A stretch of 64,000 nucleotides of DNA from a virus: positions 32,001 to 96,000 of the IMG/VR virus record IMGVR_UViG_3300030103_005357. One strand, written 5' to 3'. A program made the position numbers and the translations under genes. A model generated the notes under the pieces. The model saw only the letters and a list, made by a program, of their open reading frames with translations. It searched no databases and was not told the DNA's origin. Shown here in pieces: positions 30,402 through 55,603 of the stretch; the stretch's first letter is position 1; every line of letters starts with the position of its first letter.

Positions 30402-30442
30402 TTTTTAATTAGATAAATTTATATACGAAGGTATAATCAATT

Positions 30443-31552: not shown

Positions 31553-31609
31553 AGGTAATATAAAATTATTTTAAATAATAAAAATAGTAGTAATTAATCT
31601 TTTAACTAC

Positions 31610-32894: not shown

Positions 32895-33460
32895 CAATCA
32901 TGATTTTTAAAGCGCGAAATAAAATAGTACAATATTGTCCAACCCCAAAATGCGGTTGTACATCAACTAAAGTGATGATCCGCAAAGGGATAGAAGGTAT
33001 TATTGATTATCAAAATAATATTCACGCTAGATTTAGCACAAAGACATTTAAAGCGGTAGATGCGGATATTAAATTTTGTATAGTCAGAGATCCTGTGAGT
33101 AGGTTTTTGTCATGCTATACAAACAGAATTTGCCGACATCACGATATTGAATTTGTAGAACTCGATGAGTTTATTAACAATTTTCATGATAAATACTATA
33201 GATTAGATAAAAATATGCATCATCATTTTCGACCACAGGTTGATTTTATAGGCCATTGCCCTAGCTACTATAATAAAGTCTTTTATTTGCATGAAATGTC
33301 TTTAGTGTCGCAATTCTTAAGTGAAATCATGGGGAAGTCAATAAAATTAGAAAAACTAAATCCCGTTCAGGCAGAAAAACCAATCCCAACTGAAAGCCAA
33401 ATTGATTTCATAAAGTCGTTTTACGAAGATGATTATAAATTTTTGGACAAGATAAAGTAA
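32864..33460 (+). CDS. sulfotransferase family 2 protein
   Basis: PKCGCTS, VRDPVSRFLS and HFRPQ. Confidence 0.8.
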   Translation: MGKFVGSKKITIMIFKARNKIVQYCPTPKCGCTSTKVMIRKGIEGIIDYQNNIHARFSTKTFKAVDADIKFCIVRDPVSRFLSCYTNRICRHHDIEFVELDEFINNFHDKYYRLDKNMHHHFRPQVDFIGHCPSYYNKVFYLHEMSLVSQFLSEIMGKSIKLEKLNPVQAEKPIPTESQIDFIKSFYEDDYKFLDKIK

Positions 33461-36509: not shown

Positions 36510-37412
36510 ATGTTTGAAAAACTTGTAGGCCAGAGTGAAGTCAAGGGTCGCCTTGGCTTCTACGCCAAAGCTCACAAGGCTGGCTCTATCATTCCACCCA
36601 TCATGCTCAACGGAGCTAAAGGTTTGGGTAAGACTGAGTTCGCAAAGGAATTTGCTAGCGGAATCGAAAGAAAACTTCTTGAGATTAACTGCGGGACGAT
36701 CCGCAATGCTCAACAGTTTTTTGAACAGGTCTTCATGCCAGCTATCGCTGGAGAGGAGATTACTGTTCTTTTCGATGAGTGCCATGCCTTACCTAAAGAT
36801 TTGGTTGAAGTGTTCTTGACGGTATTCAATAGCGAGGGAGCTAAGAGTAAGCAGGTTTCTATTGGAGAAGGCTTCGCTACATTCGACTTCGTAAAGCAGA
36901 ATTTCTTGTTTGCTACTACTGAACTCCACAAGATCTTCGATCCACTTAAGGATCGCATGACTATTGTAGATTTCAAGCCTTATGTCTCCAAGGAGCTTGC
37001 TCATATCATTCAGAAGAAGATTGATTGGGTTCAGTTCGACGGGGATGTTCTTGAGCAGATCGCTGAAACGGTTCGTGGCAATGCCCGTAGCGCAATCAAA
37101 AGAGCTTTGGAAATCAAAGCATTCTGCGAGATCAATAACAATCCAAAGGTGGACGCTAAAGCTTGGCTCCAAATGAAACAAATCTTGGGTATCAAACCAC
37201 ATGGTCTAACCAACCTTGAAGTCCAGATCCTTGACGTTCTCAAATCCAACGGCCCTAGCTCTCTCCAGATGCTATCGGCTGTTACTGGGATGTCCCGCTC
37301 TGCCATCCAGCTTGATGCAGAAAACAACCTCCTTCGTAGCGGGTTCATGGAGATCGATGGTAAACGTAAGATCACAAACAAGGGGACAAAGATGTTGAAG
37401 GAGTTAGCATGA
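36510..37412 (+). CDS. ruvB: RuvB-like Holliday junction branch-migration ATPase
   Basis: LVGQ, GAKGLGKT, FDECH, ATTE...PLKDR, RGNAR and a C-terminal winged helix. Confidence 0.75.
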   Translation: MFEKLVGQSEVKGRLGFYAKAHKAGSIIPPIMLNGAKGLGKTEFAKEFASGIERKLLEINCGTIRNAQQFFEQVFMPAIAGEEITVLFDECHALPKDLVEVFLTVFNSEGAKSKQVSIGEGFATFDFVKQNFLFATTELHKIFDPLKDRMTIVDFKPYVSKELAHIIQKKIDWVQFDGDVLEQIAETVRGNARSAIKRALEIKAFCEINNNPKVDAKAWLQMKQILGIKPHGLTNLEVQILDVLKSNGPSSLQMLSAVTGMSRSAIQLDAENNLLRSGFMEIDGKRKITNKGTKMLKELA

Positions 37413-37780: not shown

Positions 37781-38319
37781 TAGTCGGGGCTGTGATATAT
37801 AATATTGTTCATTTGTAATTACAAAATTCTTTTGTTTGTTACATATTGTAGTGTCGGACACTAAAACCACAACATATAGTATAGTTTTAGGTCCATATAC
37901 CTACTGCACCAATCCCCTCCCATCGTCGCCTATCCCCCATACCTACAACATAAACTACACAACATACTAAGTAAAGATATAAGGGAGAATAATAGAGGAA
38001 AGACTGGAGGAATGGGTGTTCAAATACTGGATGTGGATTACCCTTTTTAATTAAATAAAAATAATATAAATTCCACACACAATAGTTTTCCTTGATTCTA
38101 AAGGATTTGCGGCCCTTTTGTTTGACGTAGCTGCCGCAGTGAGGTTGGTCTTTTTACTTCGCTTCAGTAAACCCAAACAAAAAAAATTATAAAAAAAGTC
38201 AATTTCTGCACGGGGGTAAATACAAAAAGTTTTTAAAAGTTTTACCTCACTGCACCAGCCACGTTAAAAAACAATAAAAAAAGTGCAGGTCGGGTGACAT
38301 TTCGCAAATAATAGGTAGG

Positions 38320-38459
38320 CCCAGATCGAAAGAGAGCGCCCAAATAATGCAGCGCCCCGAATAAACAAAATCAAAATCAAATAATGCCCAGATCTAATCA
38401 AACGGCGTAAATAATGTGATTGCCCAGATCGAACAAAACAAACTAAATAAACCCAGATC
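38320..38459 (+). repeat. four CCCAGATC direct repeats in an A-rich non-coding region
   Basis: Copies at 38320, 38387, 38423 and 38452, interleaved with AAATAA(T). Confidence 0.7.
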
Positions 38460-38538
38460 AAATAAAACACCCCAAATAAGTGTGTGGTTAGCGGGGGCGA
38501 CCACGTTCGACGATATCCGATTGTATCCGATTATCTCT

Positions 38539-38615
38539 GTAAGTCATTGAGTAGTAGGGAGTTACGGCGATCCGCGCCAGCGTCCTCCGTAACTCGCTGA
38601 CAACCAACGAGTTAC
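38539..38615. repeat. 77-bp double-palindrome element, copy 1 (core orientation F)
   Basis: GTAAGTCATTGAGTAGTAGGGAGTTAC-GGCGATCCGCGCCAGCGTCCTCC-GTAACTCGCTGACAACCAACGAGTTAC. Confidence 0.92.
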
Positions 38616-38629
38616 GAGGATTTTATTTT

Positions 38630-38926
38630 TTAATTAAAAGATTCTAGAGCTTCTATAGCATCTTGGAATGTGATGTAAGTATTGTTTTCTATATTGTGTT
38701 GATTCACCCCTTCAGACCATTCGGCATATTCTGGCGTTACTTCCGTATAGGGTAGCCCTTCGAAAAAATCGTCGAATTTTTTCCACCCCATCATTCTGTG
38801 TTCTTTACCACTCAACTGAGTAGCTGCCTTTGCTGCTAGTCAATTGATGCCACAATCAAGGTCTAGTTTTGCGTCTGGGTTTTGAGTTTTTGCGAACTCC
38901 AACAGTTGTTTGTTTGTTATTGTCAT
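38630..38926 (-). CDS. 98-codon ORF with one in-frame TGA at codon 29 (recoded gene or pseudogene)
   Basis: MTITNKQLLEFAKTQNPDAKLDLDCGIN*LAAKAATQLSGKEHR... is in frame with ORF 38630-38815. Confidence 0.6.
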
Positions 38927-38940
38927 TTGCTTGTATTTTT

Positions 38941-39210
38941 TTAATCGATTAAGAATGTACCACCTCCAAACATCCCCTCTTGAGATTTAGCCTCTGCCTT
39001 CAAGATCATTACAGCCCTCAAGTCGCGACCATCTTTTGTTGCAGGGCGAAAATCCAAAATCTTTTCTATTTGTTCCAGCTTCTGCCTGTCTCCAGTGATC
39101 GACAATCCATCAATCGTCTTGAAGATTCCCGCAGCTTTTAGAAACAGTGGGATTTCGTCTGGAGCTTCTTTTTTTAGTTTTTTAATTCGTTCGTGCATCA
39201 TGGTATCCAT
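38941..39210 (-). CDS. hypothetical protein
   Basis: Cassette 1 ORF. Confidence 0.55.
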   Translation of the reverse strand: MDTMMHERIKKLKKEAPDEIPLFLKAAGIFKTIDGLSITGDRQKLEQIEKILDFRPATKDGRDLRAVMILKAEAKSQEGMFGGGTFLID

Positions 39211-39436
39211 TTAGTGAGTTTTGTATGTAGTCTCTAATCTCGATGAACCACTCATCAGATAAATCCATTTGATCACAAAGGTCTTCTGGTATTGAGGCGC
39301 AAGCTATTTTAGCCATCTCTAAGATGGTGACATCATATAACCAGCTTCGTCTGATTTTGGAAAGCTCGGGACCAGAGGGTCTGATCGGAAACGCCTCTGA
39401 GACGGTTTGGTACTGCTTTGGTTCTTCTTTTTTCAT
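39182..39436 (-). CDS. hypothetical protein
   Basis: Cassette 1 ORF. Confidence 0.55.
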   Translation of the reverse strand: MKKEEPKQYQTVSEAFPIRPSGPELSKIRRSWLYDVTILEMAKIACASIPEDLCDQMDLSDEWFIEIRDYIQNSLNGYHDARTN

Positions 39437-39440
39437 AGTA

Positions 39441-39788
39441 TTATAGATTGCTGTATTTTTCCATCAACTCAACTTGAACGTGCTTGTTCCAGATGCTGTG
39501 CATAAGGTCGAACCAACCACCTCCACGTTCAGCTTCACCTACGGAAGAAGGGAAGACCGTTCTAAACTCCTCCATCATGGTATCTAGTTGAGATTCAAAT
39601 TGAACCTGCTCAGGGCTAGCCTCCTCTTTCAACCCATCAACTAACTTTACAGCTTCATCAACCGTTATTAGCTCGCTCCCGTCGCCATTGTAAATGTTCT
39701 TCAGATCATTGGTCTCCATGTAGGATCGGAGTAGAGCATCTAGGAGTCTCTTTGTGCTTACTTGTTTTTTACTTACGTGTTTTTTCAT
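39441..39788 (-). CDS. hypothetical protein, first gene of cassette 1
   Basis: TTGACG-17-TATGTT upstream of ATG 39788. Confidence 0.6.
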   Translation of the reverse strand: MKKHVSKKQVSTKRLLDALLRSYMETNDLKNIYNGDGSELITVDEAVKLVDGLKEEASPEQVQFESQLDTMMEEFRTVFPSSVGEAERGGGWFDLMHSIWNKHVQVELMEKYSNL

Positions 39789-39852
39789 GTCTGAGGGAAA
39801 CATACCATGAAGCGGAAGGGCCGTCAAATTTAAATTAATTAAAAATTCAGAC

Positions 39853-39929
39853 GTAAGCCACTGATTAGCAAGGAGTTACGGCGAACGCCCCCGCCGCCGC
39901 CCGTAACCCGTTGATAGTCAACGAGTTAC
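39853..39929. repeat. 77-bp element, copy 2 (core F)
   Basis: GTAAGCCACTGATTAGCAAGGAGTTAC-GGCGAACGCCCCCGCCGCCGCCC-GTAACCCGTTGATAGTCAACGAGTTAC. Confidence 0.95.
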
Positions 39930-39938
39930 GAGGGTTTT

Positions 39939-40121
39939 TTATTTGGCAGATTTCATTTCTTCTTTTCGCTTTTTCCTATCGCCAAACCAACCAACATCTG
40001 GCGCTTGCATATTTCTGCGTCGCCAAAAATCGTGATAGGCTTTATTGAATTCTTCTCTAAAACCCCTTTTTAAAGTGGCGTATCTGTTTGCTTCTGAGAA
40101 GTCTGGTTTTATTGGTTCCAT
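39939..40121 (-). CDS. hypothetical protein
   Basis: Stop codon 10 bp from element 2. Confidence 0.5.
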   Translation of the reverse strand: MEPIKPDFSEANRYATLKRGFREEFNKAYHDFWRRRNMQAPDVGWFGDRKKRKEEMKSAK

Positions 40122-40232
40122 GTTTTTATCTTTCTGTTCTGTCTATTCTTTCTCTTCTTACTAAAAGTATCAATCCGATAATGATCGTTGCCCAAAACCA
40201 AAATCCCAACCTTGCTAGTAATTTTATCAAAT

Positions 40233-40937
40233 TCATGCTGGCTCCACTACAAAACCCGTTTCATCTTTTTTTGCAAGACCTTTCTCAACTAATCCAACGA
40301 TCACGCCCTTTTTATCTTTAAAGCGGAGGTCATTCTCATCACCATCGACGACGGGAAAACCAAGATAAGTTTTAGGAAGTGAACCACGGAAAACAACCGC
40401 GACATTCCCGCCTAGCGAAAGAATCTTTTTTATTCTGTCATCGCTAGTCTCTTCACTGCGGGAAAAGGTCAGGTGGTAGTTTTTAGGCATCTTGCCATCA
40501 AGCCATTTTCTCATTCTATAAAATCCCTTGGTGTAATCATAAAAATTTACCTCTGGAAACTCTTCGATCACACTTGTCTTGCTCCCCTTCTTCATATTCT
40601 CCCAAGGAATATCACTTGTCAGATTGAGACGGAAACAAGGAGTGAGATTTTTTCTCGCGGCACTTTTGATAGCCTTTCCTATTTCAATTCTAAGATCCGA
40701 CATGAAACCGAAGTTATCTTTAAAGAACCTCCGCGTTTTAGCGATTCTAGAATTTTGCACGTTGGACATACAACCGCGCCCCGCTGTATCTAAACAAGCT
40801 GCACGACATCCTGCGCTTGCCCATTGGCAAACGTTAAATCCTGATTTAGTAGCAGGGGAAAGATGGAGACCGAACGTGCGGAATCCAACCTTTTCACCCT
40901 TAAGGGTTTTGGCGTTGCCTGAGTTAAGTAGTTTCAT
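40233..40937 (-). CDS. Gp88-like Cys-cluster (radical-SAM-related) phage protein
   Basis: C..AS.GC.A.CL..AGRG, RLN..SD, FYDYTK, YHLTFS.SE and DGDE.DLRF. Confidence 0.75.
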   Translation of the reverse strand: MKLLNSGNAKTLKGEKVGFRTFGLHLSPATKSGFNVCQWASAGCRAACLDTAGRGCMSNVQNSRIAKTRRFFKDNFGFMSDLRIEIGKAIKSAARKNLTPCFRLNLTSDIPWENMKKGSKTSVIEEFPEVNFYDYTKGFYRMRKWLDGKMPKNYHLTFSRSEETSDDRIKKILSLGGNVAVVFRGSLPKTYLGFPVVDGDENDLRFKDKKGVIVGLVEKGLAKKDETGFVVEPA

Positions 40938-40939
40938 AA

Positions 40940-41290
40940 TTACCACCAGCAAGAATAAAAAACTTTGTCCCCCTCATCGATAGCCTTTAGACCGTCCTTG
41001 ATAAAGTCGAGATCCTTCTCTTTTCTCCACTCGTCTTGACTGCTGTCAGCACCATAAAAGAAACCCATAGTTACTGGTAGTTTTCCAGCCTCAACCACTG
41101 CCCACAGACTTTCTAAATCCTCGGCAGTCAATTGCATGACTTCACAATTCAAATCGTTGGCTGGCTTTCCCGTTTTGAGAGTCCAGAGTTTTTCCATCCA
41201 GCCTTGCAAGGCGTTGTGCTTTCTCCAAGAGGCGAGTTCTACATCCTCTCCGTTGGAGTCCTGTCTATGTGCATATTGGTCTAATCCCAT
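40940..41290 (-). CDS. conserved phage hypothetical protein
   Basis: MGLDQYA...WRKHN.L.GW...Y..WW; own promoter. Confidence 0.7.
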   Translation of the reverse strand: MGLDQYAHRQDSNGEDVELASWRKHNALQGWMEKLWTLKTGKPANDLNCEVMQLTAEDLESLWAVVEAGKLPVTMGFFYGADSSQDEWRKEKDLDFIKDGLKAIDEGDKVFYSCWW

Positions 41291-41401
41291 AACGAAAGTA
41301 TTTTGACAGGATGTTTCCTGAGAGACAAGAGTTTTTTTGATTTTTTATTATTTTAATTTGCGCTTGCACTCTTAGTTTTTTGTGATATGGAAACAATCCT
41401 T

Positions 41402-41478
41402 GTAACTCACTGATTGATAAGGAGTTACGGGGCGCGGCGGGGCGGTTCGCCGTAACTCGCTGGTAGTCAACGAGTTAC
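41402..41478. repeat. 77-bp element, copy 3 (core reversed, R)
   Basis: GTAACTCACTGATTGATAAGGAGTTAC-GGGGCGCGGCGGGGCGGTTCGCC-GTAACTCGCTGGTAGTCAACGAGTTAC. Confidence 0.95.
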
Positions 41479-41485
41479 GGAGTTT

Positions 41486-42589
41486 TTACTTAATGATTTT
41501 TTTACGATAGTTCTCTTCTATGCATTCCGATGTGAAAGAATCGAGCCATCCGTTTGCCGTGTCTATGTCGCGATTAAGAGCGTAAACAGGAGTCCCATCC
41601 TCATGGCTGATGTGAATTTCCAAATGCCCATCGCAATCACCTGCGACGGTGTGGCGTTGACCATTTAAGTGTACGGTCCATTTTTTAATCTTCATCTGGC
41701 AATGGCTCAAAGGGAGCAAATGGTTCTTTCCCATATTCAAGGAAGTGCATATGCTGCTTTGCATATTGATAGACCTTGTTCATGGCTTCCTTCACTTCTT
41801 CTCTTTCTTGATAAGCTTTATCCCAAGCCTCATCGCCTAGAGGGTAGTAATCTCTCTGATGGAAGGTTGTATCAAAAAGCAATTTAATTTGCGCCTCGCT
41901 TACTGCTTCAAACAATTCATTGTATTGTTTGCGTAGGCTGTCTTCTCCCGATCCATTCATATGGATGCAGGGCATTGTGTGTTCTTTAATCATGATTTTA
42001 ATTCTTTTTTTCTTTCGTATTCAACCATCTCCTCATCGATTCTAAAAGAGTCACCGATATAACTGCTTTCATCTGGCAATGGCAAGCTGCCATTTTCTGC
42101 GATGTTAACTGCTTCATCCCAAGATTCTGCTTCTACCATCATTGTTCCGTAAACCTCCCATGAGCATGGGACTCCATATGTTTTTTTCATAATCTTTCTG
42201 AATCATACCGTCGGATCAAAACAAAACCCAACTCTTTAAGTGCTTCTATGTCGCTAATTGTTAAAGTTTTTCTTCCTGTTAGTTTCCTTATAGAGTTCCT
42301 AACAGATTCTTCTTTTACATAAGTAAGTTCATTACCCCAAACTTCTTTTCTTATTACTTCTATTGTCATGGTTTTAGCTTTCGCGGTGAATTTGTGTAAA
42401 GCCTAGCTTATCAAACACTTCTGATAGTTCAATCGCACCGTGTGTAGAGATAGGGATGCGAGTTTTCTTCTTATCAAAATCCCATTCAATGGAATATTCT
42501 AAGCCTTTATAGCCATCCTCTTCCCTTCGGACGCTAAAGGTCTTGTTGAAGTGTCCTGTCAATTTAATGGTTGGTGTTTCGTTGTTCAT
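41486..42589 (-). other. operon of five small hypothetical genes (41486-41695, 41685-41993, 41990-42190, 42187-42369, 42374-42589)
   Basis: Tightly coupled ORFs with overlapping stop and start codons. Confidence 0.6.
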
Positions 42590-42593
42590 AGTT

Positions 42594-42950
42594 TTATTCT
42601 GCGAAAATTACATAACCGTGCTTGTTGCCGCGAATCACAACAATTTCAGCTTCATGGATAGGATTGTTGCGCTCATCAATAAAGGTCTTAGCCTTATAAG
42701 GGTTGTAGGTTACAGAAGCATTAGGAACTTTCGAGTAAGTGATTTGATTAAGCTCCTCGCCTACAATTACAGCATGGACATTTTTTCTTTGTTCTTTTAA
42801 AACCCGCTGACGACCAGCTTCGGAGACTTTGAACTTGGCATTTTTAACAATGCACTGCTCTGCATGGCGAACTACTCTCCACGCACCATCAACTTTTTCT
42901 TGAATGCTTAGGCATCGCTTGTGGCGGTTGTAGTAAACTTTGATTTCCAT
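42594..42950 (-). CDS. conserved phage hypothetical protein
   Basis: VYYN.HK..LS, FKVSEAGRQRVLKE.RKNVHA and YNPYK motifs; own promoter. Confidence 0.7.
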   Translation of the reverse strand: MEIKVYYNRHKRCLSIQEKVDGAWRVVRHAEQCIVKNAKFKVSEAGRQRVLKEQRKNVHAVIVGEELNQITYSKVPNASVTYNPYKAKTFIDERNNPIHEAEIVVIRGNKHGYVIFAE

Positions 42951-43023
42951 AACGAGGGTATTTTGACAGAATTTGATTTTAAGACAAGCCTTTTTTAATG
43001 TTTTTAATTAAAAAAAAATCTTC

Positions 43024-43100
43024 ATAAGTCACTGAACGATAGTGAGTTACGGCGAACGGACCCGCCGCCGCCCGTAACTCCTTGATACTCAATGACTTAC
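43024..43100. repeat. 77-bp element, copy 4 (core F)
   Basis: ATAAGTCACTGAACGATAGTGAGTTAC-GGCGAACGGACCCGCCGCCGCCC-GTAACTCCTTGATACTCAATGACTTAC. Confidence 0.95.
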
Positions 43101-43123
43101 AGCGTTTTTTATTTCTGCAAGAG

Positions 43124-43157
43124 AAAACCCCGCCCCCCATGCAGAGGGGACGGGGTT
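43124..43157 (-). terminator. intrinsic terminator for - strand transcription
   Basis: AAAACCCCGCCCCC...GGGGGACGGGGTT hairpin with T tract on the - strand. Confidence 0.65.
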
Positions 43158-43326
43158 AGCTATCGACCACGATGAAAATTAAAAGGCCATCTTAAGAAGA
43201 TGCACAACGCCGATAAAGGAGATTAGCCCTGACAAAAGCAGAATGCAAGTAAAAACTACATTCTCGAAAAAAGTTCTATCCTGTTCTTTCATGATAAGAA
43301 GCCCCCCTCGCGGGGGGCGTTATAGG

Positions 43327-44082
43327 TTAGGCAGACAAAACAACTGCGGAAGCGCGATCCTCTTCAGTGATAACTGGGTTTGCCACCCTATCAAAGATTG
43401 ATTGCATACGCATGGTGCGGTCAGACAACTTGGAAAGGTCGCTACCCTTGAGATTCTCGGTGACAGAATTGTAGAGAGTCCAGAGAGAGCCGCCCTTGAA
43501 TTCTTCATGGCGAGGGTTGCGGAACTCCTCAACTGCTTTGTAGATATCACGGGCGGGAAACGCTTTGGAATCGACAAGCTCGACAATCAAGTCAGAGGCA
43601 GACTCGACTTCAGTTTGCTGGTAAGACTCAATGCGCTTCGCCATGTCAGACCAATGATCTTTGACCTTGGCAACGGCAGAAGAAAGCACACGGGGAAGAT
43701 CTGACAGAATGTTAGTGGTATGACGGCGAGCCAGCTTCACATCAGAAGAGAAGCAAAGATTTTCACAAACCATCATTTGATTGCCAGCAGCAATAGAAGC
43801 AGCAAAAGATTTGTCGTGAGCATTGCGAAGGCCCAAGACGATCTTGCGATCCTCTCCAGAAATGTCCTTACCCTTGAGGGCAAAGCCTCCGAAGTAACGA
43901 AGGCCACCACGGGCAAGAGCATGCTCTTCCTCGGAGACTTCAAACCCAGCGCGACCAATGGCATCGCGGGTCATATCCACCAACTTGCGGTGAGGGATTG
44001 GGGTATGGGTTGCGGTTGCTTCTGGGGTTTGGACTCCAGAAAGGGCTTCGGCATCAATTTTGTTTTTAGCGTAGATAAGCAT
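43327..44082 (-). CDS. DUF932/DUF945-family phage/plasmid protein
   Basis: LGLRNAHDKS, VCENL, RHT and LWTLYN.VTE; TTGTGC-17-CATACT before ATG 44082. Confidence 0.75.
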   Translation of the reverse strand: MLIYAKNKIDAEALSGVQTPEATATHTPIPHRKLVDMTRDAIGRAGFEVSEEEHALARGGLRYFGGFALKGKDISGEDRKIVLGLRNAHDKSFAASIAAGNQMMVCENLCFSSDVKLARRHTTNILSDLPRVLSSAVAKVKDHWSDMAKRIESYQQTEVESASDLIVELVDSKAFPARDIYKAVEEFRNPRHEEFKGGSLWTLYNSVTENLKGSDLSKLSDRTMRMQSIFDRVANPVITEEDRASAVVLSA

Positions 44083-44220
44083 AACGGCAGGAGTATGACC
44101 TAAAAAAACACTTTGCACAACAACTAATTGAACAAAAATGAAAATAATTTGTAGGTCAGAATATTTTGCGGAAATAAATATTGACATACCCCCCAGCCTT
44201 ATGATAGAGAGAAAACCTCC

Positions 44221-44297
44221 GTAACTCACTACTACTCAACGAGTTACGGGCCACCGAGGGGCGCTTCGCCGTAACTTACTGATTGTCAATGAGTTAC
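44221..44297. repeat. 77-bp element, copy 5 (core R)
   Basis: GTAACTCACTACTACTCAACGAGTTAC-GGGCCACCGAGGGGCGCTTCGCC-GTAACTTACTGATTGTCAATGAGTTAC. Confidence 0.95.
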
Positions 44298-44386
44298 GAT
44301 GGTTTTACAGTAACTCCTAAAAAAACAAAAAAAACCCCTCCCACTGTCTAGAAAAGCGGGAGAGGTTTGGATAGTCAACCTTTCGA

Positions 44387-44593
44387 TTAACTAAGAGCAA
44401 ACTTTTCGTTTAATGCGGAAACGTGCTTGCGTGTCCACTTCACATTATCCACGAAGTTTTCAAACTTATCATCTTGGACATCACCCATTCTTTCGGCTAG
44501 GTGTTGATGAACGAGACGCAAAGCATATTCAAGCATGATAGCCTGATCTTGGTTTCTCACTTCGATACGGACGGATTCAGTTGATTTAGGCAT
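44387..44593 (-). CDS. hypothetical protein
   Basis: TTGACA-17-TAAAGT-6-ATG. Confidence 0.6.
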   Translation of the reverse strand: MPKSTESVRIEVRNQDQAIMLEYALRLVHQHLAERMGDVQDDKFENFVDNVKWTRKHVSALNEKFALS

Positions 44594-44637
44594 AATTTGA
44601 CTTTAGTTTATAGTTTCTTATCTGTCAAGTAAAAAGA

Positions 44638-45651
44638 TTACTTGTTGTGCAGCTTGTTGTGCAGCTTGTGCATATCGAAGAAGAGTCTCTGCCAGCAGTT
44701 AGCTTTCCTGCCCGATACCGCTTTGATACCTTTTGACTCATATTTCAAAACCGCAAAGTGAAACTGAGTAAAAGTTTTTAGTTTGTCTTTTCTCGGATGA
44801 TTGCCCCCAATGCTCCAAACACCATTCTTGATGATTTTTTTGATGAGATCGATATCATACAGCCCTCCCAATCCTCTATCCTTGATAGAGTCTAGTAGAA
44901 ACTGTGGCAATCCAGACCACATTTGCATTCCAAATTTCTTTTGGTCTGCTATCTCCTTACTGAATACGTGATCAATGATGACAACTGTGTCATTCATTAC
45001 TTTCTTGATGATAGCAGCCCTTTCTTTTGGGACTAGCAATCTATTTTTTAACACTCCATTGATGGCAGCTAGGATCTGCCCATGAAAAGACGCAACATTA
45101 GCACCAAGATCAAGAGCTTTCTCTTTGGTCGGATTCAACGGATTGTAACCAAGTTTTTTGAAAAGTTTGATTATACCATGAATGTTATCAGGATCACTTT
45201 CTTTGAGTCTAGTGATTGCCTTAGCCTTAGCCCAAAAGCGAGCATTCACTTCCCATTGGCTTTTTGTTCTTGGGTCGTTAGCTCGCAAGCATCTTGTGAT
45301 TGATGCTAGCGTATTGACGACCCTGCAATCAATAACATCATAAGGGGAAGCGCAAATTCTATGCTGACCATCAGTAATCTGAGGATAGTATTTGCCTTTA
45401 TGTTTGTGCAGATAGATGTTGGGCAAATCGCAATCGTCATCATCCCAATTGTTTTTGATGTTCTCAATCTGACTCTTGTTCAATGCTCTTTGGAAGCTCT
45501 CATCGATTCCAATATTTTCTTTTTTGATTTGCGCTATCTTATAGATCCCCACCTTTTTAATCTGTGGAGCCTTAGATAGAGGCTTTGCGTTTAGACCGTA
45601 GTCTGTTACTGCTTTATGCGTGTTCTGATAGAACTTAGTTTTATTACTCAT
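44638..45651 (-). CDS. ParB/Srx N-terminal-domain protein
   Basis: IDESFQR.L and ITDGQHR motifs. Confidence 0.65.
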   Translation of the reverse strand: MSNKTKFYQNTHKAVTDYGLNAKPLSKAPQIKKVGIYKIAQIKKENIGIDESFQRALNKSQIENIKNNWDDDDCDLPNIYLHKHKGKYYPQITDGQHRICASPYDVIDCRVVNTLASITRCLRANDPRTKSQWEVNARFWAKAKAITRLKESDPDNIHGIIKLFKKLGYNPLNPTKEKALDLGANVASFHGQILAAINGVLKNRLLVPKERAAIIKKVMNDTVVIIDHVFSKEIADQKKFGMQMWSGLPQFLLDSIKDRGLGGLYDIDLIKKIIKNGVWSIGGNHPRKDKLKTFTQFHFAVLKYESKGIKAVSGRKANCWQRLFFDMHKLHNKLHNK

Positions 45652-45841
45652 AACGTTTTTAGTTTCTTGTTCTTTGGTTGATGCCCCCGAATCAGTAGTT
45701 CATCAGCGACAGAGAGAGTCTAACTGGATTTAGTTTATATGCAAGATTTTTTATTAATTTAAAATGCAGCTCAGAGTATTTCGCGCCAAATATCTCTTGA
45801 GACAATCCACCACCCCAAAAACATAGTTACAAAAAAACCCC

Positions 45842-45918
45842 GTAAGTCACTGATAATCAACGACTTACGGGCGGCGGCGGGGCGCTTCCCCGTAACTCGC
45901 TGATTACCAACAAGTTAC
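45842..45918. repeat. 77-bp element, copy 6 (core R)
   Basis: GTAAGTCACTGATAATCAACGACTTAC-GGGCGGCGGCGGGGCGCTTCCCC-GTAACTCGCTGATTACCAACAAGTTAC. Confidence 0.95.
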
Positions 45919-45928
45919 GAGGCTTTTC

Positions 45929-46183
45929 CTACTTAGTAGGATCGTCGCAAGCAGGGCCGACATCCCCATCGCGCCCCTCAGAGTGAAAAAAGTCTCCGTC
46001 ACACTCGCACAACCACCAGCGCGAGCGCCTGACCTTCCCCCGCTTACCAGCCCAGTCGGGGCCACAAGCATCCTCCCAAGCTTCCTCGGGGGAGGTTCCG
46101 AAACCTTGATTCAACAGCTGAAGCCCAAAAGGGCAGGACTGCTTTTTAGAACGGACAACATAGTGTTTAGTAGTGCTGGACAT
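45929..46183 (-). CDS. hypothetical protein
   Basis: TTGCTA-17-TATTCT-6-ATG. Confidence 0.55.
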   Translation of the reverse strand: MSSTTKHYVVRSKKQSCPFGLQLLNQGFGTSPEEAWEDACGPDWAGKRGKVRRSRWWLCECDGDFFHSEGRDGDVGPACDDPTK

Positions 46184-46237
46184 GGGAGTAGAATAAACAG
46201 AAAATGCGATACTAGCAAGACATTTTAAAATCTTTTT

Positions 46238-46477
46238 TTATTCTGCGTCGAGGTGATTTTGAAGAGCTTGCGCGTCTGCGGGTGACAGGCCATCCTCATC
46301 AGAAGACCATTCGGGATTGCGGTCGCCCATGTCGTTGTGGATCTGCGCGAGCAAATCTTGCATTACTTCGTCCGTGGGGTTGAAGTTGCCAGCGCGAGGT
46401 CCATCGTCAAGCATATCGCGCAAGTCAGTTTCATTCATAGGAGGGAGGGTATCAACAATAGGATTTTGAACTGTCAT
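46238..46477 (-). CDS. acidic hypothetical protein
   Basis: TTGACC-17-CATACT-6-ATG; Asp-rich. Confidence 0.6.
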   Translation of the reverse strand: MTVQNPIVDTLPPMNETDLRDMLDDGPRAGNFNPTDEVMQDLLAQIHNDMGDRNPEWSSDEDGLSPADAQALQNHLDAE

Positions 46478-46614
46478 GGCGGGAGTATGGTTCAGAATTT
46501 ATGATGGGTCAACCTATAAAAACATTTTTTTTGATTTTAATGTAGCTCAGGATATTTTTCGCCAAATATCTTATGGGGCAATCCACCCCAGAAACGCAGT
46601 CAGAAGAGAGCTTC

Positions 46615-46691
46615 GTAACTCACTGATACTCAACGAGTTACGGCGAACCGCCCCGCCCCCGCCCGTAACTCCTTGACGCTCAACGAGTTAC
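46615..46691. repeat. 77-bp element, copy 7 (core F)
   Basis: GTAACTCACTGATACTCAACGAGTTAC-GGCGAACCGCCCCGCCCCCGCCC-GTAACTCCTTGACGCTCAACGAGTTAC. Confidence 0.95.
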
Positions 46692-47278
46692 AGCGTTTTA
46701 TCTAACCACAAAGAAACTTCCCATTTTCTCCGACGCTCCAAACCTTTTCGGATTTTTCCCGCTGCCATTCTATATTGAGGCATAACCACCTCAACGCTTT
46801 TATAGTTTCCATTATTGAGTCTATTCTTTTTTTCGCAGACGAGTTTGCGAAGTGAACCTTGACCACAGTTGAAAGTAAAACTTGTGAGTGATGCCAATTG
46901 GTTTTCAGTCAATGGAACTTTTACAATTCTCAACACATGATTTTTTGCGACAAGTAATTCTTCTTCTAACAGTTTTAATGCTTCGGCTTCTGTGATGGTG
47001 TCTCCCCACTTAACATTTTTGGTATGCCCATAGCCGATAGTCATGACTCCACCACTGCAACGATATGCCTCAGACTTAAAACTCTCATATTGTTTTACCC
47101 TATCAAACATTTTATCCCAAGGGGAAACCTCTTTTTTATAAACTCGATTCGGCTTAACAAGCAAAGGGACATTCTCTTGCTTTTCGGCGATCATCGGGAG
47201 GATCTCTATTGGCTCCTCAGTATTTAAGAGGAGATAAACTGATGTGGCTAGTAGTGTGATCATAAAAAGTTTTTTCAT
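46688..47278 (-). CDS. GH24 phage lysozyme with N-terminal membrane anchor
   Basis: E...AY.CSGGVMTIGYGHT, LTSFTFNCG and GLERRR..E; stop codon lies inside element 7. Confidence 0.88.
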   Translation of the reverse strand: MKKLFMITLLATSVYLLLNTEEPIEILPMIAEKQENVPLLVKPNRVYKKEVSPWDKMFDRVKQYESFKSEAYRCSGGVMTIGYGHTKNVKWGDTITEAEALKLLEEELLVAKNHVLRIVKVPLTENQLASLTSFTFNCGQGSLRKLVCEKKNRLNNGNYKSVEVVMPQYRMAAGKIRKGLERRRKWEVSLWLDKTL

Positions 47279-47279
47279 T

Positions 47280-47444
47280 TTATTTATTATCAAAGTGATT
47301 TCTCAACCATCCTTCGACGGCTTCCTTACCAAACCGATTATGTAAACGGCGCAGAGTAAAGTGGCTTCTACTTATTACACCATCAACCTCAAGCTCCGCG
47401 ATGTATTCTTGCATGGCTTTTTCGAATTTTTCTTTTTCTGTCAT
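47280..47444 (-). CDS. 54-aa hypothetical protein (MTEKEKFEKAMQEY...), not in the ORF track
   Basis: Hand translation; sits between paralog A and the lysozyme. Confidence 0.55.
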   Translation of the reverse strand: MTEKEKFEKAMQEYIAELEVDGVISRSHFTLRRLHNRFGKEAVEGWLRNHFDNK

Positions 47445-47446
47445 GA

Positions 47447-47590
47447 TTATTTTAATTCCTCCAATTCAACTTTTAACTCTTGGCACTCTTTCTGGAATTG
47501 ACCTGAGACTTCGACGACCCTATCGACCATCTTGTCCCAATTTTCTTCTGCTTTTGCCATCGCTGCCAATGCTTCTTCTGTCGCTGTCAT
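47447..47590 (-). CDS. 47-aa helical protein, paralog A (MTATEEALAAMAKAEENWDKMVDR...)
   Basis: TTGACC-16-TATACT-6-ATG; near-identical N-terminus to 50108-50275. Confidence 0.75.
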   Translation of the reverse strand: MTATEEALAAMAKAEENWDKMVDRVVEVSGQFQKECQELKVELEELK

Positions 47591-47662
47591 GTGGGAAGTA
47601 TATCAGAAAATGTGATGAGGTCAACCCCTAAACGCACTTTTTTAATTTATTTTTAGGGAAAT

Positions 47663-47801
47663 TGGTCGCTCTAAAAGGACTTGCACCTTTATCTTTCTCG
47701 CCCGAACCATTGGGGTTGCGGTGACTTTCTCGCCGAGATTATCATCGAGCGTGTTATTGAAGAGGTCGTGGAGATTGTCTTGCTTGTTAGACTATAGAGC
47801 T
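47663..47801 (-). ncRNA. tRNA-like RNA with a 71-nt structured insert in place of the anticodon loop
   Basis: GCTCTA/TAGAGC acceptor plus ACCA, GTCT/AGAC D stem, AAAGG-TGCAAGT-CCTTT T arm; own TTGTCC-17-TATAAT promoter. Confidence 0.7.
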
Positions 47802-47857
47802 TTCTTACGGGGGAGATTATAAGTGATTTGGGGGATGGGGACAAGCCCTTTTTTAAT

Positions 47858-48070
47858 TTATTTTTCTATGCGTGAGAAGTAGAGAGTTCTGAAAACTTCC
47901 TTGTTACCGCTCTCGCTGTCGTGGCTTTTGTCAACTACCTTGCAAACTGCGAACTCCTTAGTTGAACGCTCAACCCCGCGAAGTTGATACATGCGGAGAT
48001 TTCCATTGTTGGAGGTGGTATAAACAAACTGCTTATTGATCAGGCGGGTGATGTTGTCTTGGTTGGTCAT
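47858..48070 (-). CDS. small beta-rich protein with FRTL motif
   Basis: TAAAAT-6-ATG; similar to 48702-49055. Confidence 0.65.
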   Translation of the reverse strand: MTNQDNITRLINKQFVYTTSNNGNLRMYQLRGVERSTKEFAVCKVVDKSHDSESGNKEVFRTLYFSRIEK

Positions 48071-48187
48071 GTGGATATTTTACTCTAAAAACGCAGAGAT
48101 TAAAAGCTTTTTCTGCATCTTTTTTTATTTATTTTTTTAAGTAAAAGGCTTGACACTATTCTTCTTTACTATAAAGAAACATCCTTC

Positions 48188-48264
48188 GTAAGTCCTTGAT
48201 ACTCAACGAGTTACGGGCCAGCGACCCGCCGCGCCCCGTAACTCCTTGATACTCAGTGAGTTAC
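48188..48264. repeat. 77-bp element, copy 8 (core F)
   Basis: GTAAGTCCTTGATACTCAACGAGTTAC-GGGCCAGCGACCCGCCGCGCCCC-GTAACTCCTTGATACTCAGTGAGTTAC. Confidence 0.95.
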
Positions 48265-48323
48265 GACGGTTTTCTTATTAGCTGTTTTCTCGCGGCTGTC
48301 AACACAAAAGATTAATTTAATTC

Positions 48324-48347
48324 AAAAAAAAGCTCCCTTTCGGGAGC
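48324..48347 (-). terminator. intrinsic terminator
   Basis: GCTCCC-GAAA-GGGAGC followed by a T run on the - strand. Confidence 0.75.
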
Positions 48348-48361
48348 CTTGCACGGGGTGG

Positions 48362-48595
48362 TTAGTCTTGCCAGTCTCGCGCTCGATCCTCCGCGCCTTG
48401 CGCCATGTATGTCCGAGCGTCCTCCAATCCGTCCTTGTAGGCGAACGCCCATATCTCATATGATTCCTCTCCATTCGGAAACTCATCGGGTATGATATAG
48501 CCAAGGTAGGAGGTGGGGCAGATGTTACTCTCCTGATTGTTGAGTGCTGCCTTGTATGCGAATTCTGCGAGCTGGTCTTGTGTTACTGTTGCCAT
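48362..48595 (-). CDS. hypothetical protein
   Basis: TTGTGT-17-TATAAT-6-ATG at 48595. Confidence 0.6.
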   Translation of the reverse strand: MATVTQDQLAEFAYKAALNNQESNICPTSYLGYIIPDEFPNGEESYEIWAFAYKDGLEDARTYMAQGAEDRARDWQD

Positions 48596-48701
48596 GCCGA
48601 GATTATACTCTCGAAAAGAATTAAACACAAGATCTTTTTGCATAAAAACACAAAAAAACCCGCCAGCCTCCGAAGAGACTGACGGGCGACACACAACACC
48701 A

Positions 48702-49055
48702 TTAGAAAACTGATTTGGCTAGCTGGTAAGCGGTCGCCACGCGACCCTTCACCTTGGTAATTCCCGAAACATGCAGAGTGCGGAACTTAGTCTTGCCTCC
48801 ATCGTCGAGGTCTTGCACCTCTCCTTGGATGTAACGGCGACCCGAACCTTTGGCGTGATCGGTGTGATCAACTGACTTGATAACGAAACTACGAACGCCG
48901 TCATTTTTGACAGAGGATTCGTCGTGGTTGTAGTAAGTCACCACGCGATTGGTGAGCTTTTTCTTAAGGTCTTCGTCGCTGAGTCCATACAGGGCGTGGT
49001 CGAACTTGTAGTTGATGCCGACATTGGTGGTGGTAGTGGTAGTGGTGTTTTTCAT
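48702..49055 (-). CDS. beta-rich protein with FRTL motif
   Basis: TTGCGC-17-TATAAT-9-ATG at 49055. Confidence 0.65.
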   Translation of the reverse strand: MKNTTTTTTTNVGINYKFDHALYGLSDEDLKKKLTNRVVTYYNHDESSVKNDGVRSFVIKSVDHTDHAKGSGRRYIQGEVQDLDDGGKTKFRTLHVSGITKVKGRVATAYQLAKSVF

Positions 49056-49064
49056 AACGAGGTA

Positions 49065-49093
49065 ATTATACTCTAGATTTTGGTTGGGCGCAA
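49065..49093 (-). promoter_or_regulatory. representative sigma70-type promoter of the cassette region
   Basis: TTGCGC-N17-TATAAT; similar promoters precede many genes in 39.8-50.7 kb. Confidence 0.75.
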
Positions 49094-49122
49094 GAACTAT
49101 TTTGCTATTAAAGTGATTTTTT

Positions 49123-49368
49123 TTAGAGGTAGGAGGCGACAGAAACAAGGGCTTCGACCTCTGCTCTTTTGGCTGCGCGTTTAGCTGCGCGGATATCGAG
49201 GAGAGCTTTCGCTGCTTGCTCGCGGGTGATAGCTTGGAACTTGTAGCGACTCCAGTTCTGATTTTTAACGGAGACATGCAAGTAGGTCATGCCAGTACGG
49301 TAGACTGAGAGAATGAGATGCTTGGTCTTATAGGTGCGGAACTTTGGTGATGTAGTGGTGTCGGACAT
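49123..49368 (-). CDS. hypothetical protein
   Basis: TATAAT-6-ATG at 49368. Confidence 0.6.
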   Translation of the reverse strand: MSDTTTSPKFRTYKTKHLILSVYRTGMTYLHVSVKNQNWSRYKFQAITREQAAKALLDIRAAKRAAKRAEVEALVSVASYL

Positions 49369-49485
49369 GGGGATATTATAAACGGAAATCTCACAAAAGA
49401 AAAGCTTTTTCTGCATAAAAAAGAAACTTTTTTTTCGATTAAAAGTGTTGACACGATGGCTTGTTTTGGTATGGGAAAAACCTTC

Positions 49486-49562
49486 GTAAGTCGTTGATAC
49501 TCAGTGAGTTACGGGCGGCGGCGGGGCGCTTCGCCGTAACTCGTTGATACTCAGTGAGTTAC
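49486..49562. repeat. 77-bp element, copy 9 (core R)
   Basis: GTAAGTCGTTGATACTCAGTGAGTTAC-GGGCGGCGGCGGGGCGCTTCGCC-GTAACTCGTTGATACTCAGTGAGTTAC. Confidence 0.95.
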
Positions 49563-49610: not shown

Positions 49611-49676
49611 TGGTGGATGGCGGGGGGATCGAACCCCCATCCGAGACTCGCATCCCGTCGAAACCATTGGCCACCC
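49611..49676 (-). ncRNA. minimal tmRNA-like RNA (tRNA-like domain only)
   Basis: GGGTGGC-CAATGGTTTCGAC-GGGAT-GCGA-GTCTC-GGAT-GGGGG-TTCGATC-CCCCC-GCCATCC-A-CCA; G3:U70 pair, no D stem. Confidence 0.8.
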
Positions 49677-53548: not shown

Positions 53549-54597
53549 TGGATTTAACAGATGATCAAAAAGAATATATAAAAAACAATGTGAATAAAGT
53601 CACAAATTTAAATGAACTCACCCAAAAATGTTTTAGGGATGATGATTTAGATGGTCGCACGAAAGAGGGTCGGGCTGTTCGAAAATACTTAATAGAGAAT
53701 AATATTGATTATAAAACAACCCGCCGCAAACCACAGGACAAAATAGAACTAAACGATTCTCAAAAAGAGTTCATTATCCAGCAAGCTCAGGAGGGAATGT
53801 CGTCTTTGGAGATTGCCAAGCTTATATTTCCAGAAAAGAGAGTAAAGCCACTAAGCAATGAGCAGAGAACGGTTCTGGCGCACATCAACGAGGTCAATCC
53901 CGATTTCGTCCCATCGCAAGACTCCGCTGCCGTAAATGATTACGTCCCGCCCAAAAGCCCAAGTCGTGTGTTAAAGAAAATCAATGATGCTACAGGATTA
54001 GCGTTGGATGATGGAAAACTAAATAGACAAAAGCAAGTCTGTATAGAAAAGCTTCAAATCAATCTATCCAATAGTAGATTTTTAAAAATCATCAATAATT
54101 ATCTTAATAAACAGGACAGAGAGTTATTCGAGCAAGAATTTATTCGTTTGAGTTGGGACAAGCCCGATTTAACCGCAGACGAAATCAATCTATACCTGAA
54201 CGTATGCAAAGAGGTCATTAACTTGGAAGTCGTCTCTGCACACTTGAACAAGCTTAATGAGATGTTTGACGTTGCTGATGACCAAACCGAAATGACCGTG
54301 CGTCTCGCGGAGATTATCAAAGCTAAATCACAAGAATATCATCAATGTGAGACCCGCATTGAGAACTTGACGAAGAAGTTACAAGGTGACCGTGCTGAGC
54401 GCATGAAGAAGAGCCAAAAACAAAATGCGTCATTTTTGGCCATCGTCCAGATGTTTCAAGAAGAGGAAGAGCGGAAGAATATGGTTCGCATGGCAGAAAT
54501 GCAAAAAAAGTTAATTAAAGAAGAAGCTGAGCGGATGGAAGGGATGGCAGAGTGGAAAGCGCGAATCTTAGGTATTAGTCAGGACGATGCAATTTGA
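53548..54597 (+). CDS. hypothetical helical protein upstream of the packaging genes (small terminase candidate)
   Basis: HTH-like N-half, coiled-coil C-half, genomic position. Confidence 0.45.
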   Translation: MDLTDDQKEYIKNNVNKVTNLNELTQKCFRDDDLDGRTKEGRAVRKYLIENNIDYKTTRRKPQDKIELNDSQKEFIIQQAQEGMSSLEIAKLIFPEKRVKPLSNEQRTVLAHINEVNPDFVPSQDSAAVNDYVPPKSPSRVLKKINDATGLALDDGKLNRQKQVCIEKLQINLSNSRFLKIINNYLNKQDRELFEQEFIRLSWDKPDLTADEINLYLNVCKEVINLEVVSAHLNKLNEMFDVADDQTEMTVRLAEIIKAKSQEYHQCETRIENLTKKLQGDRAERMKKSQKQNASFLAIVQMFQEEEERKNMVRMAEMQKKLIKEEAERMEGMAEWKARILGISQDDAI

Positions 54598-55603
54598 ATG
54601 TAAAGAGTGTGGCCAGACGTTCGATACGCAACGTGGTCTACATATGCACATCAAGAAGCACGATATGCTTCTTGGTGATTACTATGTCAAACACTATCCA
54701 CGTTTCGACAGGCTGACCGAAAAACCTATCGAATTCAAAAACGCCAAGCAGTACTTCTCTACAGATTTCAACACAACCAAGAACATGAACCTCTGGTTTG
54801 AGAAAGCGCCCAAAGATGAGGTAAAAAAATATATTTTGGAGAAGTTCAAAAAAAGAATAGAAAACAAGAACCTCAAACAAGCTCCATCGAGCCTATATCT
54901 GAAGACGGGCGACTGGCCTACGTTGGACATCATAAAAAAGCTGTTCGGCGGTTACAACGCATTCTGTGAGCAAATAGGGGTGAGTCCTGCGTACGGAAAG
55001 AATGTATGTAAAGAGTTTTTTGAAGATTATAGCAATGAAGAGGTCTGGATCGATACAAGAGAGAATAAACCTCTAAACTTTAAAAATTCTTATGTTTTTA
55101 AACTAGACTTCGGTGATTACACTCTGCCCCCGAAAAACTATACCCATACTCATGCAGAAAGAAAGTCGTTCCAAGATTTTGCTGCCACTGTAACAAATGG
55201 TTATGCTAGGTTTGTTAGAGAGATAGAAAGATGCCAAAGTTTGGGGTGTTTCTTATTTATCGTTGTTGAGGCAGATTATAATCAAATTTATAAAACAAAT
55301 AGTGCTGCTTACAAAAAATTCAATATGGGATTTGTGTTTAGCAGAATGAGGTCTATCGAAGCGCAATTTAGTGACTGTTGTCAATTTGTGTTTAGTGGAT
55401 CTAGAGAAGGCAGTGAGGAGTTAATACCCAAGATCCTCTGCTGTGGTAAGAAGCTGTGGAATGTTGACTTACAATATTTTTGGGAAAAAGAATTAGAAAA
55501 AAATGGCTTGGATAGAAGGCAATCAAGACCTATACAAGAAGTTCAAAGAAGTAAACCAAGAGATACTTTCCAAAGAAGGATACATCGAAGAAGGAGAGGC
55601 TAA
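54587..55603 (+). CDS. C2H2 zinc finger plus ERCC4 (XPF/Mus81-type) nuclease
   Basis: CKECG...HMHIKKH; IDTRE, GDY and ERKS..D. Confidence 0.8.
   Translation: MQFECKECGQTFDTQRGLHMHIKKHDMLLGDYYVKHYPRFDRLTEKPIEFKNAKQYFSTDFNTTKNMNLWFEKAPKDEVKKYILEKFKKRIENKNLKQAPSSLYLKTGDWPTLDIIKKLFGGYNAFCEQIGVSPAYGKNVCKEFFEDYSNEEVWIDTRENKPLNFKNSYVFKLDFGDYTLPPKNYTHTHAERKSFQDFAATVTNGYARFVREIERCQSLGCFLFIVVEADYNQIYKTNSAAYKKFNMGFVFSRMRSIEAQFSDCCQFVFSGSREGSEELIPKILCCGKKLWNVDLQYFWEKELEKNGLDRRQSRPIQEVQRSKPRDTFQRRIHRRRRG

Follow-up and report, generated by a model that had tools for sequence, protein, structure and literature searches.

The window analysed here, a 64,000-nt stretch (positions 32,001 to 96,000) of the virus record IMGVR_UViG_3300030103_005357 of IMG/VR, is a piece of the genome of an uncultured marine tailed phage. 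It contains nine copies of a 77-nt palindromic element whose short GC-rich core is flipped in some copies relative to arms that keep their own polarity. As far as can be judged from the sequences of the window and its relatives, these flips are probably best explained by rare accidents of copying or patch repair at palindromes, and not by a working switch.

All nine elements share the same layout: (i) a 27-nt arm; (ii) GG; (iii) a 19-nt core; (iv) CC; and (v) a second 27-nt arm. Each arm is a small palindrome with the consensus GTAAsTC-nn-TGA-nnn-TCA-nn-GAGTTAC and, since both arms have the same palindromic form, each is at once a direct and an inverted repeat of the other. The core is flanked by the inner 9-mers GAGTTACGG and CCGTAACTC, mutual reverse complements which are perfect in six copies and have one mismatch in copies 2, 5 and 6; the inner inverted repeats described in the initial annotation are, thus, exact in six copies. 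Outside the nine elements, no further occurrence of the arm sequence was found in the window. The core has about 89% G+C and is strand-skewed: cores that are C-rich on the + strand are designated F and cores that are G-rich on the + strand are designated R. The elements are all located between 38.5 and 49.6 kb, at a spacing of 0.8-1.6 kb, in a region where the genes lie on the - strand and the G+C content rises from about 36% to 41-46%. Every element is placed directly downstream of a stop codon and borders gene groups on the - strand. The elements are the following:

Element 1, 38539-38615: arms at 38539-38565 and 38589-38615; core at 38568-38586, CGATCCGCGCCAGCGTCCT, C-rich on the + strand, degenerate F, skew -4.
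Element 2, 39853-39929: core at 39882-39900, CGAACGCCCCCGCCGCCGC, F, C-rich on the + strand.
Element 3, 41402-41478: core at 41431-41449, GGCGCGGCGGGGCGGTTCG, R, G-rich on the + strand.
Element 4, 43024-43100: core at 43053-43071, CGAACGGACCCGCCGCCGC, F; the orthologous locus is polymorphic.
Element 5, 44221-44297: core at 44250-44268, GCCACCGAGGGGCGCTTCG, skew +1, half R-like.
Element 6, 45842-45918: core at 45871-45889, GCGGCGGCGGGGCGCTTCC, R.
Element 7, 46615-46691: core at 46644-46662, CGAACCGCCCCGCCCCCGC, F.
Element 8, 48188-48264: core at 48217-48235, GCCAGCGACCCGCCGCGCC, C-rich on the + strand, F-like, skew -5.
Element 9, 49486-49562: core at 49515-49533, GCGGCGGCGGGGCGCTTCG, R.

Along the array, core orientation runs F F R F R R F F R. 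With up to two mismatches, the 23-bp consensus, which comprises the 19-nt core together with its GG and CC, matches six copies: the + strand gives copies 2, 4 and 7, and the - strand gives copies 3, 6 and 9; the chance expectation in shuffled sequence is none. The initial annotation had read the core as forward in copies 1, 2, 4, 7 and 8 and as reverse complement in copies 3, 5, 6 and 9. This assignment stands, save for copy 5, where it applies only to the right 11 nt: the 3' 11 nt of that core (GGGGCGCTTCG) are of R type, whereas the 8 nt at its 5' end are like those of copy 8. Copies 1 and 8 have degenerate cores which are nearer to the F cores.

The dataset behind the conclusions on the family comprises at least 387 elements with a 19-nt core, from at least 185 sources among marine viral and metagenome contigs (a stricter pattern was used in marine metagenomes), and 123 ortholog groups; in IMG/VR, 66 loci match the inner-repeat pattern. 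The family is abundant in these sources, and the figures given for relatives rest on elements among the matches listed. Elements were oriented to the window by means of flank homology, with 0 of 2072 edges being inconsistent. The 185 unique elements of the resulting window-oriented set include 109 with a core G-rich on the + strand, 50 with a C-rich core and 26 ambiguous ones. Core length is 19 nt in 160 of 193 matches. The arm 7-mers GTAACTC and GAGTTAC are invariant across lineages whose flanks can no longer be aligned, and almost no compensatory changes are seen.

The flip of the core relative to the arms is already visible within the window. For pairs formed by one F and one R copy, the mean core distance is 12.6 in forward comparison versus 5.35 against the reverse complement, while for pairs of the same class it is 5.75 versus 12.6. 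The arms of F-R pairs are, by contrast, closer in forward comparison (11.75 versus 14.05); this polarity is only modestly visible inside the window because the arms are near-palindromes, 12-18 of their 58 positions differing from their own reverse complement. In copies 8 and 9, the arms have 4 mismatches forward and 14 against the reverse complement, whereas the cores have 13 and 6, respectively. The relatives confirm the initial claim that the arms keep their polarity: among the 185 unique window-oriented elements, TAC is found as the right-arm loop in both core classes, and GTA is outside the six commonest loops in each. Likewise, the GTAAG variant stays on the left arm, as had been noticed in the window, since the left outer 7-mer GTAAGTC is present in 47/109 elements of the G-rich class and in 30/50 of the C-rich class, versus 9/109 and 8/50 for its right-side mirror GACTTAC. 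Besides, arm polarity agrees with the direction of the flanking genes, which was called independently, in 42 of 49 ortholog groups. Arm asymmetries are equal in both core classes and, in consequence, inversion of the whole unit does not explain the copies of the window.

A comparison of orthologs, which had been proposed as a check, revealed that core orientation can change with arms and flanks unaltered. At the copy-4 locus, the core is F in five assemblies (the window's own assembly, W, together with L007, L240, L274 and L299) and R in four (L061, L189, L267 and L052). The flanks of L061_11091 (R) and L274_6567 (F) are 98.6% identical (identity is 100% in the 250 nt on the left and 96% in the aligned part on the right), and their arms have 1 mismatch in forward comparison versus 18 against the reverse complement; all other differences are inside the 19-nt core. 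For flipped-core pairs at this locus in general, the arms have 1-4 mismatches forward versus 17-21 against the reverse complement. In L007, an element with the arms and proximal flanks of element 7 has an R-like core of weak skew (+2).

Such changes are rare. Considering classifiable ortholog pairs with both flanks aligned, 192 have the same orientation and 1 is flipped when the flanks are at least 97% identical; at 90-97% flank identity, 185 pairs agree and 13 are flipped, every one of the latter at the copy-4 locus; and at 80-90%, 103 agree and 2 are flipped. Orientation is uniform in 70 of 72 strict ortholog groups and mixed in 4 of the 123 window-oriented groups. All 11 orthologs of copy 9 are G-rich on the + strand, and the 15 members of the largest group have one and the same orientation. 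A frequently flipping switch would not leave such a pattern: the binary switch put forward in the initial annotation is, therefore, not borne out, and core orientation appears to be inherited stably and not to be a programmed switch. In one related group, a true inversion of the whole unit was found (L260_209 versus L302_1137 and L206_4335), with 13-15 arm mismatches forward and 7-9 against the reverse complement. Given both the core flips and this case, inversion is not limited to a single nested level of the palindrome.

Several observations bear on how the cores change. At the copy-4 locus, the R core has 5/19 mismatches to the reverse complement of the F core and 1 mismatch to the neighbouring copy 3; being nearer to the core of copy 3, it points to ectopic copying and not to inversion in place. 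Within contigs, 21 pairs of non-orthologous elements have cores in the same orientation with at most 1 mismatch, and another nine pairs have reverse-complement cores at the same threshold, four of them exact (L189, L023, L055 and L062). The arms of these core-sharing pairs differ at 4-18 of 58 positions, and the partners lie 0.35-5.8 kb apart in the same contig. In the window, the cores of elements 6 and 9 are 1 nt apart, yet their arms differ at 13/58 positions. When the flanks are at least 97% identical, divergence amounts to 5.3% in the core, 1.4% in the flanks, 0.7% in the outer arms and 0.1% in the inner 9-mers. In those same comparisons, the number of core differences is bimodal (none in 129 pairs and at least 5 in 19), which indicates block replacement and not point substitution. 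Smaller core changes in close relatives are clustered in a terminal stretch of 6-8 nt, on one side only. The variant CTCGCGG, as read from the sequences, pairs with the opposite core end CGAG and lengthens the stem, which is a signature of template switching at quasipalindromes (PMC7202029).

The gene order between elements varies among relatives that have the same genes (e.g. L006, L019 and L030). Moreover, the elements at L019:7534 and L019:8921 are chimeric: each has one half, including part of the core, in common with a single element of L014 and L056, and the left arm of one of the two has the opposite polarity (GTA loop). These chimeras suggest that a cassette was inserted or inverted with breakpoints within the core. 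A tandem form with three arms and two cores (arm-core-arm-core-arm) occurs at L041:314-440.

The following course of events would account for the patterns described. The elements would be long quasi-palindromes bordering small cassettes of early genes, with two hairpin arms around a skewed GC centre. A nascent or invading strand that ends in an inner repeat could re-anneal either to the other strand of the same element or to any other element, in parallel or antiparallel register, copy the centre and then switch back. As the outcome, the centre would be replaced as a block, at times reversed, and the arms and flanks would remain intact. Both orientations are possible because the inner repeats are self-complementary and common to the copies, so that either register can be used. 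The molecular route would be template switching during replication or short-patch gene conversion. Both orientations would be tolerated because the centre may serve mainly as a spacer or loop, rich in G+C and not self-complementary, within a border hairpin, and sequence-specific constraint would fall on the arms. Of the two mechanisms considered in the initial annotation, template switching at inverted repeats fits the data; a recombinase is not supported, none having been found among the approximately 45 open reading frames (ORFs) that were scanned.

Some findings weigh against so neutral an account. The skew of the core is not random: 30 cores have an absolute G-C difference of at most 2, when 80 would be expected, and 96 have one of 5-9, when 46 would be expected. 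Oriented so as to be C-rich, the core has a real directional design, in which positions 3-4 are A and two CCC blocks come next. In 32 ortholog groups versus 10, it is the sense strand that carries the C-rich core (68 versus 33 in the window-oriented set), and the 3:1 excess among the groups implies that orientation is perhaps not fully neutral; a mild orientation effect is possible. The fixed 19-nt length of most cores goes beyond what a spacer role alone explains. In addition, two canonical terminator hairpins are located 26-65 nt upstream of elements 4 and 8, the molecular route is read from sequence patterns alone, and the scan for recombinases took about 45 of the window's ORFs and not every one.

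Part of this evidence could be accommodated by a functional, strand-specific signal (e.g. a C-rich or G-rich transcript loop, or a G-rich DNA strand, that would set the polarity of the border element) whose orientation is kept at each locus by selection and merely reset by patch conversion. The directional design of the core, its preference for the sense strand and the conservation of orientation in diverged orthologs (all 11 at copy 9 and all 15 of the largest group) are in its favour, although a low mutation rate likewise predicts that conservation. However, both orientations coexist in one array and, among near-identical phages, at one locus; predicted fold energies are alike in both core classes; no flank or arm feature correlates clearly with core class; and the mixed F/R order of the array is unlike that of a polar signal such as Chi or KOPS. 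This explanation is, on the whole, unlikely. For the same reason, the directional signal for a translocase suggested at first is unlikely as a uniform one, F and R cores being interspersed in the array; there is, all the same, a weak preference for one strand. A more specific version, in which the centre is a strand-specific signal of an undescribed class of phage cassette borders, with its orientation setting border polarity and being reset by short-patch conversion, is quite doubtful; such a signal could be, for instance, a C-rich transcript loop or a G-rich strand that a translocase or polymerase reads.

The remaining alternatives are weaker. It would be very improbable that whole elements lie in opposite orientation, through an insertion like that of miniature inverted-repeat transposable elements (MITEs) or through a 77-nt inversion, and that the palindromic arms only look unchanged. 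The arms are indeed near-palindromes and one related group does show such an inversion, but the equal arm asymmetries of both core classes, the agreement of polarity with gene direction and the forward likeness of the arms in flipped-core pairs and in copies 8 and 9 contradict it. The initial annotation had set this possibility against inversion of the core; on the strength of the arm comparisons, it is refuted for the nine copies, in which the 77-bp unit is not inverted together with its arms. A programmed phase switch operated by a site-specific recombinase has in its favour the perfect 9-bp inverted repeats that bound the core and the polymorphism of the copy-4 locus among close relatives. 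Nevertheless, neither a serine or tyrosine recombinase nor an HUH enzyme was detected (Pfam or PHROGs) in the approximately 45 scanned ORFs, a set which does not cover all the small ORFs. The segment has only 19-23 bp, far below the length of known invertible segments, since known invertases (Hin/Gin and the FimB/E systems) invert stretches longer than about 100 bp. In addition, 192 of 193 classifiable near-identical pairs agree in orientation, the flipped core of copy 4 departs at 5 of 19 positions from the other state's reverse complement, and no promoter-like hexamers are found in the 19-23 bp segment of 89% G+C, all of which leaves a slender chance for such a switch. Finally, palindromes can give rise to chimeric reads and misassemblies, but each state of copy 4 recurs in independent assemblies from different samples (five F and four R) and other loci are uniform over 5-15 assemblies, so that assembly or sequencing artefacts at hairpins are hardly credible as the origin of the flips.

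Regarding the possible function of the element, it is plausible that a GC centre unable to pair with itself would prevent DNA extrusion of the 77-bp palindrome, leaving an open hairpin loop. The RNA of the elements (coding strand) is predicted to fold with -30 to -51 kcal/mol (z -2.9 to -8.1). A run of at least four A is present on the left in 63% of the elements and one of at least four T on the right in 67%, which resembles bidirectional terminators. Conventional GC-rich terminator hairpins with T runs are found, all on the - strand, at 43126-43157, 43301-43318, 48329-48350 and 48658-48687. As separate terminator hairpins lie near elements 4 and 8, the 77-nt element is not simply a terminator, nor the sole termination signal. 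The invariant 7-mers, the few compensatory changes and the equal frequency of G.U and A.C mismatches argue against a plain RNA hairpin. The invariance of the arm 7-mers would speak for sequence-specific recognition by some factor, or for strong homogenisation. The promoter scan gave no promoter at a fixed place in the 77-nt unit, and the distance to the next start codon is variable.

Other candidate roles were considered and rejected: (i) an RNA acting on the coding strand, as G.U and A.C mismatches are equal (230 versus 230) and do not allow a strand call; (ii) a small-RNA gene with promoter, hairpin and T run, since TTGACA-16-TATGAA is found at copy 9 only and the promoter scan gave nothing at the other eight; (iii) integron attC sites or GTTRRRY boxes, which the 7-mers do not fit when the sequence is read; (iv) the extra-stable mini-hairpin d(GCGAAGC) as the meaning of the core, which is present in 27 of 261 unique elements only; (v) a link of core class with arm dinucleotides or loops, which is weak and inconsistent; and (vi) a ParB-like binder encoded by the ORF at 44638-45651, for which there was no Pfam match at E≤0.01 and no PHROGs match at E≤0.001.

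The family provides a clean, well-replicated natural case in which the centre of a dispersed palindromic repeat is block-replaced and flipped while its arms are constant. The flipping of a hairpin centre is an already known mutational outcome, to which this well-supported case adds (i) ectopic copying restricted to the core, in both registers; (ii) a block turnover of the core that is about four times as fast as flank divergence; and (iii) the 3:1 strand preference. Copying between copies works in parallel and antiparallel because the anchors are self-complementary. For annotators and for those who search for phase variation, this means that such flips are not to be taken for switches. Furthermore, the core can be used as a fast-evolving marker of cassette recombination in uncultured marine phages that form a very common group, and the unchanging 7-mers of the arms show which portion of the element some factor must recognise.

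Concerning the phage itself, the Pfam and PHROGs scans of the window ORFs identified a large terminase, a minor tail protein L homologue, a lysozyme, PhoH, Mom and ThyX. The large terminase is just 22-30% identical to those of Bacillus and Clostridium phages, its tail genes belong to the minor tail protein L type, and no deposited phage gave a DNA match to the window (megablast). A cluster of glycosyltransferase and sulfotransferase genes (Branch, Galactosyl_T, Gly_transf_sug and two Sulfotransfer_2) extends over 26022-33460 and adjoins ThyX and a gene like that of pyrimidine-dimer glycosylase. At 54587-55603, an ERCC4-domain nuclease with an N-terminal C2H2 zinc finger is encoded, a candidate for a structure-specific nuclease in a genome full of hairpin-forming repeats.

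Where + and - transcription converge, next to the array, there are 750 nt without genes (37800-38540), which include four iteron-like repeats of about 30 nt each (TGCCCAGATC...AAATAA) at 38318-38479. An AAA+/winged-helix gene (36510-37412; RuvB-like, clamp-loader-like) adjoins this stretch and is kept beside the array in many relatives; the repeats of 37800-38540 and this gene are a candidate replication origin with its initiator. Within the array, a 57-nt repeat is present in three copies (48062-48118, 48587-48643 and 49360-49416); on the - strand it reads ATGCAGAAAAAGCTTTT...TATAAT, followed by ATG after 6-7 nt, and it looks like a common promoter module right before start codons (leaderless-type early genes). 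A tmRNA match (Rfam RF00023; 47.6 bits, E 2e-16) covers only 66 nt at 49611-49676 on the - strand and, from its extent, would be a mini-tmRNA with the tRNA-like domain only. On the coding strand, element 9 follows 48 nt downstream of it, and the promoter-like TTGACA-16-TATGAA lies between both.

Among prokaryotes, the genome collection yielded mostly unrelated repeats and chance matches, and one true element, on the 8.7-kb contig L151 (CAKZOO010000161.1). This contig belongs to a metagenome-assembled genome bin of an uncultured Flavobacteriaceae, which is a weak hint at the host or else a binning artefact. In Bifidobacterium ramosum and B. hapali (L067, L128 and related loci), tandem arrays with a 63-nt period are built from the same 7-mers, GTAACTC-N23-GAGTTAC alternating with GAGTTACGG-N22-CCGTAACTC; in Rubripirellula obstinata (L072 and others), palindromes of the form GAGTTACGG-N15-17-CCGTAACTC are dispersed over many contigs. 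The likeness of these bacterial repeats to the phage family may be due to chance.

With respect to known systems, no Rfam family matched the elements (a sub-threshold match to a miRNA precursor was obtained on element 8 only) and, in the literature, no description of the 77-nt element was found, nor were its sequence words in any relevant context. Bacterial REP, BIME and REPIN sequences are extragenic imperfect palindromes located at gene ends (PMC2817692; PMC3733652). As in those families, there are many copies, in both orientations, with concerted evolution. The phage elements differ from REP and REPIN in that (i) they lack a GTAG or CGTC tag, their arms starting with GTAAC or GTAAG; (ii) they are located in phages; and (iii) their arms have one polarity relative to transcription. 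No match to a RAYT (IS200/IS605-like) or Y1 transposase was obtained in the approximately 45 scanned ORFs.

In phages of the T4 type, the small intergenic motifs termed promoter-early stem-loop (PeSL) bound small non-essential early genes and recombine with each other, so that cassettes are shuffled and chimeric motifs are made (PMC2839356; PMC4122927). Similarly, relatives of the window phage have reordered genes between elements, as well as chimeric elements (L019_7534 and L019_8921). A PeSL motif comprises a sigma70-like early promoter and a terminator stem-loop. The 77-nt unit has a strong stem-loop; it differs from PeSL in that no conserved promoter was found as part of it and in its architecture, a double palindrome around an asymmetric GC core. 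The window phage, to judge from its terminase and tail genes, is not T4-like. A discussion of core flipping was not found in the portions of the PeSL accounts consulted (PMC2839356; PMC4122927).

Closer parallels are found among mutational events at hairpins. The inversion of hairpin loops via template switching has been documented (PMC8794818), as have template-switch mutations at quasipalindromes (PMC7202029; PMC7954356). In those cases, as in the phage elements, clustered multi-base changes render both sides complementary and the loop is inverted with its stems intact. They are, however, mostly intramolecular and involve 4-nt loops, whereas the phage loop has 19 nt and exchange also takes place between elements. 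In non-coding plastid DNA, small hairpin-bounded ("minute") inversions of 4-50 bp are common (PMC12371153), as reported by Kelchner & Wendel 1996, Kim & Lee 2005 and Catalano et al. 2009, works cited here as summarised in that review. The phage cores resemble them in that a short segment (here, 19-23 bp) lies in either orientation between inverted repeats that form a stem (all the core differences between L061 and L274 fall within the 19 nt between GAGTTACGG and CCGTAACTC) and in that the change recurs in close relatives without a recombinase. In contrast to plastid minute inversions, the phage family is dispersed and multi-copy, its centre is GC-rich and strand-skewed instead of an AT-rich loop and, at the best-documented locus, the flipped centre looks copied from another copy.

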